Made by a program: the position numbers and the translations under genes. From NCBI RefSeq assembly GCF_003334255.1, contig NZ_QOWU01000226.1: a DNA stretch of 526 bases. One strand, written 5' to 3'. Position 1 is the first letter of the stretch, and each line of letters begins with the position of its first letter. Under the pieces are notes generated by a model. The model was given only the letters and a program-made list of their open reading frames with translations. It was not told the origin of the DNA and ran no database searches. Of the stretch, positions 1 through 526 are shown in pieces. The stretch comes from Escherichia coli. GTDB lineage: Bacteria; Pseudomonadota; Gammaproteobacteria; Enterobacterales; Enterobacteriaceae.

Positions 1-526
1 ATGCAACAGAAGGTACTGCGTTAGGGGCAAAGGCAACAGTAACAAATAAAAACAGTGTTGCATTAGGTGCTAATTCTGTAACCACTCGTGATAACGAAGT
101 TTATATTGGCTATAAAACCGGAACCGAAAGCGATAAAACATACGGCACCCGTGTTCTTGGTGGCTTAAGCGATGGTACGCGTAACAGTGATGCGGCAACT
201 GTTGGGCAGTTAAACCGGAAAGTTGGTGGAGTTTATGATGATGTTAAAGCCCGTATAACTGTTGAGTCAGAGAAGCAGAAAAAATACACAGACCAGAAGA
301 CCAGCGAGGTTAACGAAAAAGTTGAAGCCCGCACAACGGTTGGTGTTGATTCCGACGGAAAACTTACCCGTGCAGAAGGTGCGACTAAAACTATCGCCGT
401 CAATGACGGTCTCGTTGCTCTGTCTGGCAGAACAGACCGTATTGATTATGCAGTTGGTGCCATTGATGGCCGTGTCACCCGTAACACGCAATCCATTGAG
501 AAAAACAGCAAGGCGATTGCAGCCAA
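1..526 (+). CDS. Internal fragment (5' and 3' partial) of a trimeric autotransporter adhesin-like fibrous surface protein; reading frame 3 (codons 3-5 ... 522-524)
   Basis: Seen in sequence: frame 3 on the + strand is open for all 174 codons; the other two + frames hit stops early (TAG at 22-24 in frame 1, TAA at 47-49 in frame 2). Translation contains [11 protein letters not shown] (YadA-head-like repeat), [22 protein letters not shown] (neck-like, compare the YadA neck pattern R.L..LAAG...TDAVNVAQL), and VTRNTQSI / IEKNSKAI (asparagine-at-d heptads typical of these stalks). The 174 residues contain no Cys, Trp, Met, His, Pro or Phe and are rich in Thr/Gly/Val/Ala/Asn/Lys, as expected for a repetitive fibre. 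8 of 11 Arg codons are CGT. Family assignment rests on motif recognition only. Confidence 0.8.
12..95 (+). other. Two tandem 14-residue YadA-like head repeats ([14 protein letters not shown] / [14 protein letters not shown])
   Basis: Seen in sequence: residues 4-17 and 18-31 of the frame-3 translation align without gaps (xxALGAxxxVTxxN). The pattern resembles the SVAIG-type 14-residue repeat of left-handed beta-roll head domains in YadA-like adhesins. The DNA copies (12-53 and 54-95) are diverged, so this is a protein-level repeat. Confidence 0.6.
141..215 (+). other. Neck-like connector motif ([25 protein letters not shown])
   Basis: Pattern matches the conserved neck of trimeric autotransporters: a basic residue, hydrophobic residues around a Gly, then T/S-D-A-x-x-V-x-Q-L. 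It sits immediately after the head repeats and before a charged helical-looking segment, which is the canonical order. Confidence 0.65.
231..338 (+). other. Charged Lys/Glu-rich post-neck segment with two YxD motifs (YDD at 234-242, YTD at 285-293); putative first stalk coiled-coil segment
   Basis: Seen in sequence: [36 protein letters not shown] is strongly charged and Gly-poor compared with flanking sequence. YxD motifs are known from coiled-coil stalk segments directly after the neck in YadA/Eib-type adhesins. Helical periodicity was not computed. Confidence 0.4.
441..526 (+). other. Start of heptad coiled-coil stalk with two consecutive asparagine-at-d layers ([16 protein letters not shown]); continues beyond the window
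   Basis: Seen in sequence: hydrophobic residues spaced 3-4 apart (I147, V151, I154, V158, I165, I172) with Asn at the intervening core positions N161 and N168, followed by T/S. The [IVL]xxN[TS]xx[IVL] pattern is characteristic of trimeric autotransporter stalks. The register was assigned by eye. Confidence 0.5.

Follow-up and report, generated by a model that had tools for sequence, protein, structure and literature searches.

A 526-nt Escherichia coli sequence open end to end in one frame is, on sequence identity, almost certainly an internal fragment of eibC or eibD

We analyzed a 526-nt stretch of E. coli DNA (referred to here as the window) and found that it is almost certainly, to judge by its sequence, an internal fragment of eibC or eibD, genes for immunoglobulin (Ig)-binding trimeric autotransporter adhesins. 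A megablast search of the phage collection matched the window to eibC (AF151674 nt 1664–2189) and to eibD (AF151675 nt 1690–2215), in each case with 526 of 526 nt identical. The source of both records is the prophages of E. coli ECOR-9, P-EibC and P-EibD. The annotated coding sequences, at 970–2484 for eibC (1,515 nt) and 975–2510 for eibD (1,536 nt), are about three times the length of the window, which bears out an earlier sequence-only reading that the window was wholly coding and lay inside a gene much larger than 526 bp.

Identity of the window and its absence from the ORF track

The annotated frame in both records corresponds to + frame 3 of the window, with window nt 1 being the second base of a codon, and the window covers residues 233–406 of the 504 in EibC and 240–413 of the 511 in EibD. 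A protein search with the frame-3 translation, which the sequence-only reading had proposed as a check, returned chain A of PDB 2XQH ('immunoglobulin-binding protein EibD') with identity at 174 of 174 residues (2XQH residues 103–276; E=1.6e-102). The last 23 residues of the translation (window aa 152–174) are in addition identical to the EibD part of PDB 2XZR. The window therefore belongs to the Eib group by its 100% nucleotide identity to the characterized genes eibC and eibD and its 100% amino acid identity to 2XQH, and it carries no lesion. The sequence-only reading can be refined accordingly: the product is an Ig-binding Eib protein that has already been annotated and crystallized, and the window does not reveal an unannotated gene.

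The only 100% DNA matches among the complete E. coli genomes and the phage and plasmid collections were eibC and eibD. The plasmid collection yielded no match to the window. No identical copy was present in the 5,426 complete RefSeq E. coli genomes, 42 of which carry related alleles. The best alleles among these genomes were 97.3% identical over nt 46–526 or 93.5% identical over the full length, and they are annotated as 'YadA-like family protein' or 'YadA C-terminal domain-containing protein'.

As had been noticed from the letters alone, + frame 3 is open across the entire window, with 174 sense codons from nt 3 and no stop. The remaining frames contain 7 (+1), 21 (+2) and, on the minus strand, 4, 8 and 5 stops. 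There are 28 stop triplets (TAA, TAG or TGA) on the + strand of this sequence, which has a G+C content of 46% over its 526 nt, and none of the 28 falls in frame 3. Dinucleotide-preserving shuffling of the window, repeated 30,000 times, left the three + frames without any stop in 3, 2 and 0 cases, respectively, or about 6e-5 per frame. Chance as the source of the open frame is thus excluded.

The ORF lister used here leaves out ORFs that run off either end of the window. Since the start and the stop of the eib gene both lie outside the window, the ORF track does not show the gene, and this absence reflects how the lister treats window edges rather than any biological oddity. Five bounded ORFs were listed at a min_aa of 20. 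For ORFs of at least 60 aa, the earlier statement that the track shows only a 74-aa minus-strand ORF (267–491) is correct. Other scans of the window returned little. No RNA family was detected by Rfam on either strand at E≤1. Two weak terminator-like hairpins were present inside the coding sequence, at 397–409 on the minus strand and 422–437 on the plus strand, compared with 0.6 expected from shuffles, and these are probably chance matches to the consensus. The only repeat in the window was one imperfect pair of 16 nt, which we judged to be due to chance.

Domain architecture and relationship to other adhesins

The adhesin motifs that had been recognized by eye in frame 3 were recovered with profile and structure searches. 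The Pfam model PF05658 (YadA_head) matched window aa 2–25, the last of the head repeats and equivalent to EibD 241–264, with E=8.5e-5; full-length EibD contains five such repeats. The NCBIfam model YadA_autotrans matched the window translation with E=1.6e-5 and full-length EibD with E=2e-30. The YadA head structure PDB 1P9H was matched with E=6e-5 at its head-neck end, where window aa 16–82 aligned with residues 153–211. The features assigned to the window are as follows.

1–2, + strand: bases 2 and 3 of the codon before, which reads AAT (Asn) in eibC and GAT (Asp) in eibD
3–524, + strand: eibC/eibD coding sequence, 174 complete codons, by 100% DNA identity and in frame
3–110, + strand: putative final turns (left-handed parallel repeats) of the beta-roll in the YadA-like head, from PF05658 and the strands of a structural model, with an inferred 3' limit
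111–218, + strand: putative neck connecting head to stalk, from the 1P9H alignment and the domain order in PMC7247746, with inferred boundaries
219–320, + strand: predicted right-handed coiled-coil stalk segment, from helices at EibD 304–345 in a low-confidence model
321–404, + strand: predicted saddle minidomain, from the non-helical EibD 346–373, invariance from V346 and the eibA DNA match from nt 317
405–524, + strand: predicted start of the left-handed coiled-coil stalk, from the model helix at EibD 374–451, identity to 2XZR and invariance in paralogues
525–526, + strand: bases 1 and 2 of the Asn codon that follows
267–491, − strand: 74-aa antisense shadow ORF with a TTG start, its codons exactly in register with those of the sense frame

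The domain order published for 2XQH is head, then neck, then right-handed coiled coil, followed by the saddle and a left-handed coiled coil, and the structure consists of three intertwined monomers (PMC7247746); the right-handed coiled coil and the saddle are named in both PMC7247746 and PMC12511318. For EibD, the AF2 monomer model is of poor quality (mean pLDDT 51, with values below 50 over residues 276–383) and was used for the order of elements only, so the limits given here for the sub-domains are approximate. The model predicts strands up to residue 293, helices at 304–345, a non-helical segment at 346–373 and a helix at 374–451, and this order agrees with the published one. The low confidence of the monomer model is consistent with an obligate homotrimer, although it is no test of one. 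The left-handed coiled coil runs on beyond the window to the membrane anchor.

The sequence-only reading had expected a signal peptide and a C-terminal YadA-like anchor once the flanks were extended, and both were found in the two records that are 100% identical to the window. The anchor, YadA_anchor (PF03895), occupies EibD 453–511 (E=5.2e-16) and lies outside the window in the flanks of both. At the other end, EibC and EibD begin with a basic MSKK and a hydrophobic core and continue to VSA/Q, which by inspection would be a typical Sec signal peptide. A cut between VSA and Q would be consistent with the mature EibG constructs, which begin at Q28 (PMC12511318). The protein thus combines an anchor, a passenger of head, neck and coiled coil, and a signal peptide recognized by inspection, as do trimeric autotransporters (type Vc).

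The resemblance to YadA of Yersinia (1P9H, NF033478) extends over the signal peptide, the beta-roll head, the neck, the coiled-coil stalk and the four-strand anchor. The matches are significant but distant. Against NF033478, the exception-level model for YadA proper with a curated cut-off of 750 bits, full-length EibD scored 106 bits and the window 24 bits, and YadA is therefore no orthologue. Moreover, YadA lacks the N-terminal domain and the saddle of Eib. YadA is encoded on a plasmid (pYV) and is known chiefly for binding collagen, not Ig. These comparisons indicate that EibD is a homologue and an architectural relative of YadA and not YadA itself.

Closer relatives were compared in an alignment of seven Eib-type proteins (EibA, EibC, EibD, the PhiR5_2 protein and three RefSeq alleles). 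From EibD V346, at about window nt 321, all seven are almost unchanged through the saddle, the left-handed coiled coil and the anchor as far as the C-terminus. Upstream of V346, two of them, EibA and the PhiR5_2 protein, carry unrelated sequence and have no counterpart of window nt 1–316, the part that holds the head end, the neck and the right-handed coiled coil; the right-handed coiled-coil segment is a feature of EibC/D-type proteins. At the DNA level, eibA is 84% identical to the window over nt 317–526 and eibE is 94.5% identical over nt 333–458, so that the module boundary seen in the proteins at V346 matches the start of these DNA matches. A module joint is thus present at window nt ~317–321; other alleles join at nt 46–47 instead. 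We also observed that two phage genes of the Eib type are annotated only as 'hypothetical protein', one in PhiR5_2 (L007 4233–5492; PV340546.1 nt 38307–39566) and one in PhiR12_3 (PV340552.1 around nt 43827–43952). The C-terminal ~165 residues of their products are nearly identical to those of EibA, EibC and EibD.

In considering how the protein works, we drew on this analysis for identity, frame, domains, flanks, prophage context and sense-frame selection, and on the literature for trimerization, Ig binding and phenotypes. Eib proteins are described as trimeric autotransporters in which three anchors make a 12-stranded barrel (PMC12511318, PMC3539135). Two different stalk regions of EibD bind IgA and IgG (PMC7247746), and the literature on Eib proteins reports that IgG Fc, with or without IgA, is bound by a non-immune route (PMC7247746, PMC5450701, PMC3539135). 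Non-immune Ig Fc binding, serum resistance, autoaggregation and chain-like adherence have been attributed to these proteins (PMC5450701, PMC7568254, PMC12511318). Static growth is reported to raise Eib expression (PMC5450701). Over the stretch that the window encodes, the protein used in the cited Ig-binding studies has an identical sequence. We propose that a Sec signal peptide would take the Eib protein to the periplasm, where three C-terminal anchor domains would come together as a 12-stranded barrel of the outer membrane. The passenger would then be exported through this barrel and fold into a trimeric 'lollipop', and two separate regions of its stalk may bind the Fc of IgA and IgG non-immunologically, which may contribute to serum resistance, autoaggregation and chain-like adherence. 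A text search of the accessible literature found no residue ranges for the Ig-binding sites. The right-handed coiled coil probably holds the IgA site and the left-handed coiled coil the IgG Fc site, the latter presumably around EibD 384–418, which would place both sites at least partly inside the window.

Strand under selection and prophage context

The window and four RefSeq alleles (L003–L006) were aligned to examine selection. The differences among alleles concentrate at codon position 3 of + frame 3, as exemplified by L003 with 6, 5 and 24 differences at positions 1, 2 and 3. Within nt 267–491, 27 codons differ in three alleles; read in the sense frame, 19 of these are synonymous and 8 non-synonymous, whereas for the same set read in the antisense frame only 1 is synonymous and 26 are non-synonymous. 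The sense frame is under purifying selection. These counts bear directly on the proposition that the 74-aa minus-strand ORF represents a genuine gene that overlaps eib or stands in its place. It is the only bounded ORF of at least 60 aa and it stays open in four homologous loci, yet 26 of the 27 codon changes would alter its protein and only 8 alter the sense protein. Its length is also to be expected. An in-register antisense stop requires a TTA, CTA or TCA codon in the sense frame; the window has five such codons (TTA at 21, 63, 165 and 210; TCA at 267) and none after nt 267, so a long shadow ORF is no surprise, and its stop is supplied by the sense Ser codon TCA at 267–269 read on the opposite strand. 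In shuffled sequences, a minus-strand frame was about 40 times more likely than a plus frame to lack stops throughout. The ORF begins with TTG, its product is of low complexity and rich in Cys and Phe, it had no match in NCBIfam, a promoter scan found no promoter-like site in the window, and it is annotated in none of the records examined (eibC, eibD and the homologous loci). We consider it extremely improbable that this ORF is a gene. The warning in the sequence-only reading that annotation from the track alone could call the antisense ORF instead was well placed, as the true gene is unlisted and the antisense ORF is unsupported as a gene.

The genomic context of eib was read from the flanks of the identical and homologous records rather than from the 526-nt window itself. 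In six loci the order of the cassette is gpJ, lom, tail fibre, DUF4376/ORF-191, eib, orf156, orf60 and Eaa, an S6 autotransporter. A lambdoid prophage late region, with the tail fibre 5' and orf156/orf60/eaa 3' of eib, was found in five homologous loci as well as in both identical records. The genes for EibA and EibE and the eib-like genes of phages PhiR5_2 and PhiR12_3 lie in the same prophage cassette as eibC and eibD. DUF4376/ORF-191 is 91% identical between the records, and NCBIfam had no family for ORF-191, orf156 or orf60. The stop codon of eibC is followed by a terminator, a GC-rich hairpin with a T-run, that is annotated as a stem-loop in the record. An eib gene with its own terminators has the layout of a cargo gene for lysogenic conversion (a 'moron'). 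The position of eib directly downstream of genes for tail fibres or for proteins like those of tail-fibre assembly, both in prophages and in complete phage genomes, might suggest that its product is a structural phage protein, a trimeric fibre resembling a tail fibre, instead of an adhesin of the bacterial surface. Against this, the full protein has an N-terminus like a Sec signal peptide and an outer membrane YadA_anchor barrel, the gene is flanked by its own terminator hairpins and behaves as a lysogenic-conversion gene, and Eib has been described experimentally as an Ig-binding protein of the cell surface (PMC12511318, PMC5450701, PMC7247746). We give almost no credence to a structural role in the phage and retain the assignment as a bacterial surface adhesin.

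Several observations were made on the cassette itself. The eib gene is always followed by orf156 and usually by orf60 (L001 2573–3225 and 3317–7324; L003 6909–11660; L008 3596–6210). Next after orf156/orf60 comes Eaa, an S6-family (SPATE-like) autotransporter of ~4 kb. Eib and Eaa, type V secretion proteins of two different kinds, are thus carried side by side as cargo of the prophage. In strain SW070917, gpJ, encoding the prophage tail tip, is truncated upstream of the eib cassette by an IS4-family insertion (L003 1–2203), and in strain S1-CAM-02-A an IS21 element takes the place of the tail-fibre region. These disruptions show that the eib cassette persists in decaying prophages.

The eibC/eibD identical block

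Within the window, EibC and EibD do not differ at any of 526 nt or 174 aa; they are in the same frame, and the segment is inside the crystallized fragment. The window can consequently be assigned to neither one in particular. Upstream of the window, by contrast, as many as 38 columns in 100 differ between eibC and eibD. A block of 1,280 bp in which the two genes show no difference spans AF151674 nt 1664–2943, and the last difference ahead of it is at nt 1663, the base before window nt 1 (A versus G, giving Asn versus Asp). Window nt 1 (AF151674 nt 1664, AF151675 nt 1690) is thus the first base of the identical block, and this edge is inside a beta-roll repeat of the head. The left edge of the window could be a breakpoint of recombination or gene conversion, or it could be an artefact of repeat collapse or deduplication when the window was produced. 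We put at about even chances the possibility that the block edge marks recent gene conversion or recombination between two co-resident prophages.

The same coincidence bears on whether the window could have come from a third copy that shares only this block with eibC and eibD, be it a further eib allele, a recombinant or a pseudogene in decay; in that case the surrounding gene would be unlike either record and possibly not intact. The start of the window exactly at the identity breakpoint would fit such an origin, as would the modular mosaicism of eib genes, in which other alleles match only nt 46–526, 317–526 or 333–458, and the presence of eibC-type genes in STEC strains as well (PMC5450701). 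However, eibC and eibD supplied the only 100% matches and the window is free of lesions, and we regard a third copy as having a small chance of being the source. Even a third copy would still make the window an eib coding fragment in the same frame, and eibC or eibD remains the preferred assignment.

The gene and the structure are already known. The genes eibC and eibD were reportedly described by Sandt and Hill in 2000, and the crystal structure of this segment, 2XQH, is said to have been published by Leo et al. in 2011. The window accordingly adds nothing new biologically, and its practical value is methodological. When frames that run to the edges are omitted, a gene spanning a short window is hidden, and the resulting ORF list can promote an in-register antisense shadow ORF in place of the real gene; frames open from end to end should be reported explicitly for short windows. 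As for the Eib proteins themselves, if the block edge does mark conversion or recombination between the two prophages, the event would have homogenized the stalk that binds Ig, together with the anchor and orf156 downstream, with the N-terminal head free to diverge.
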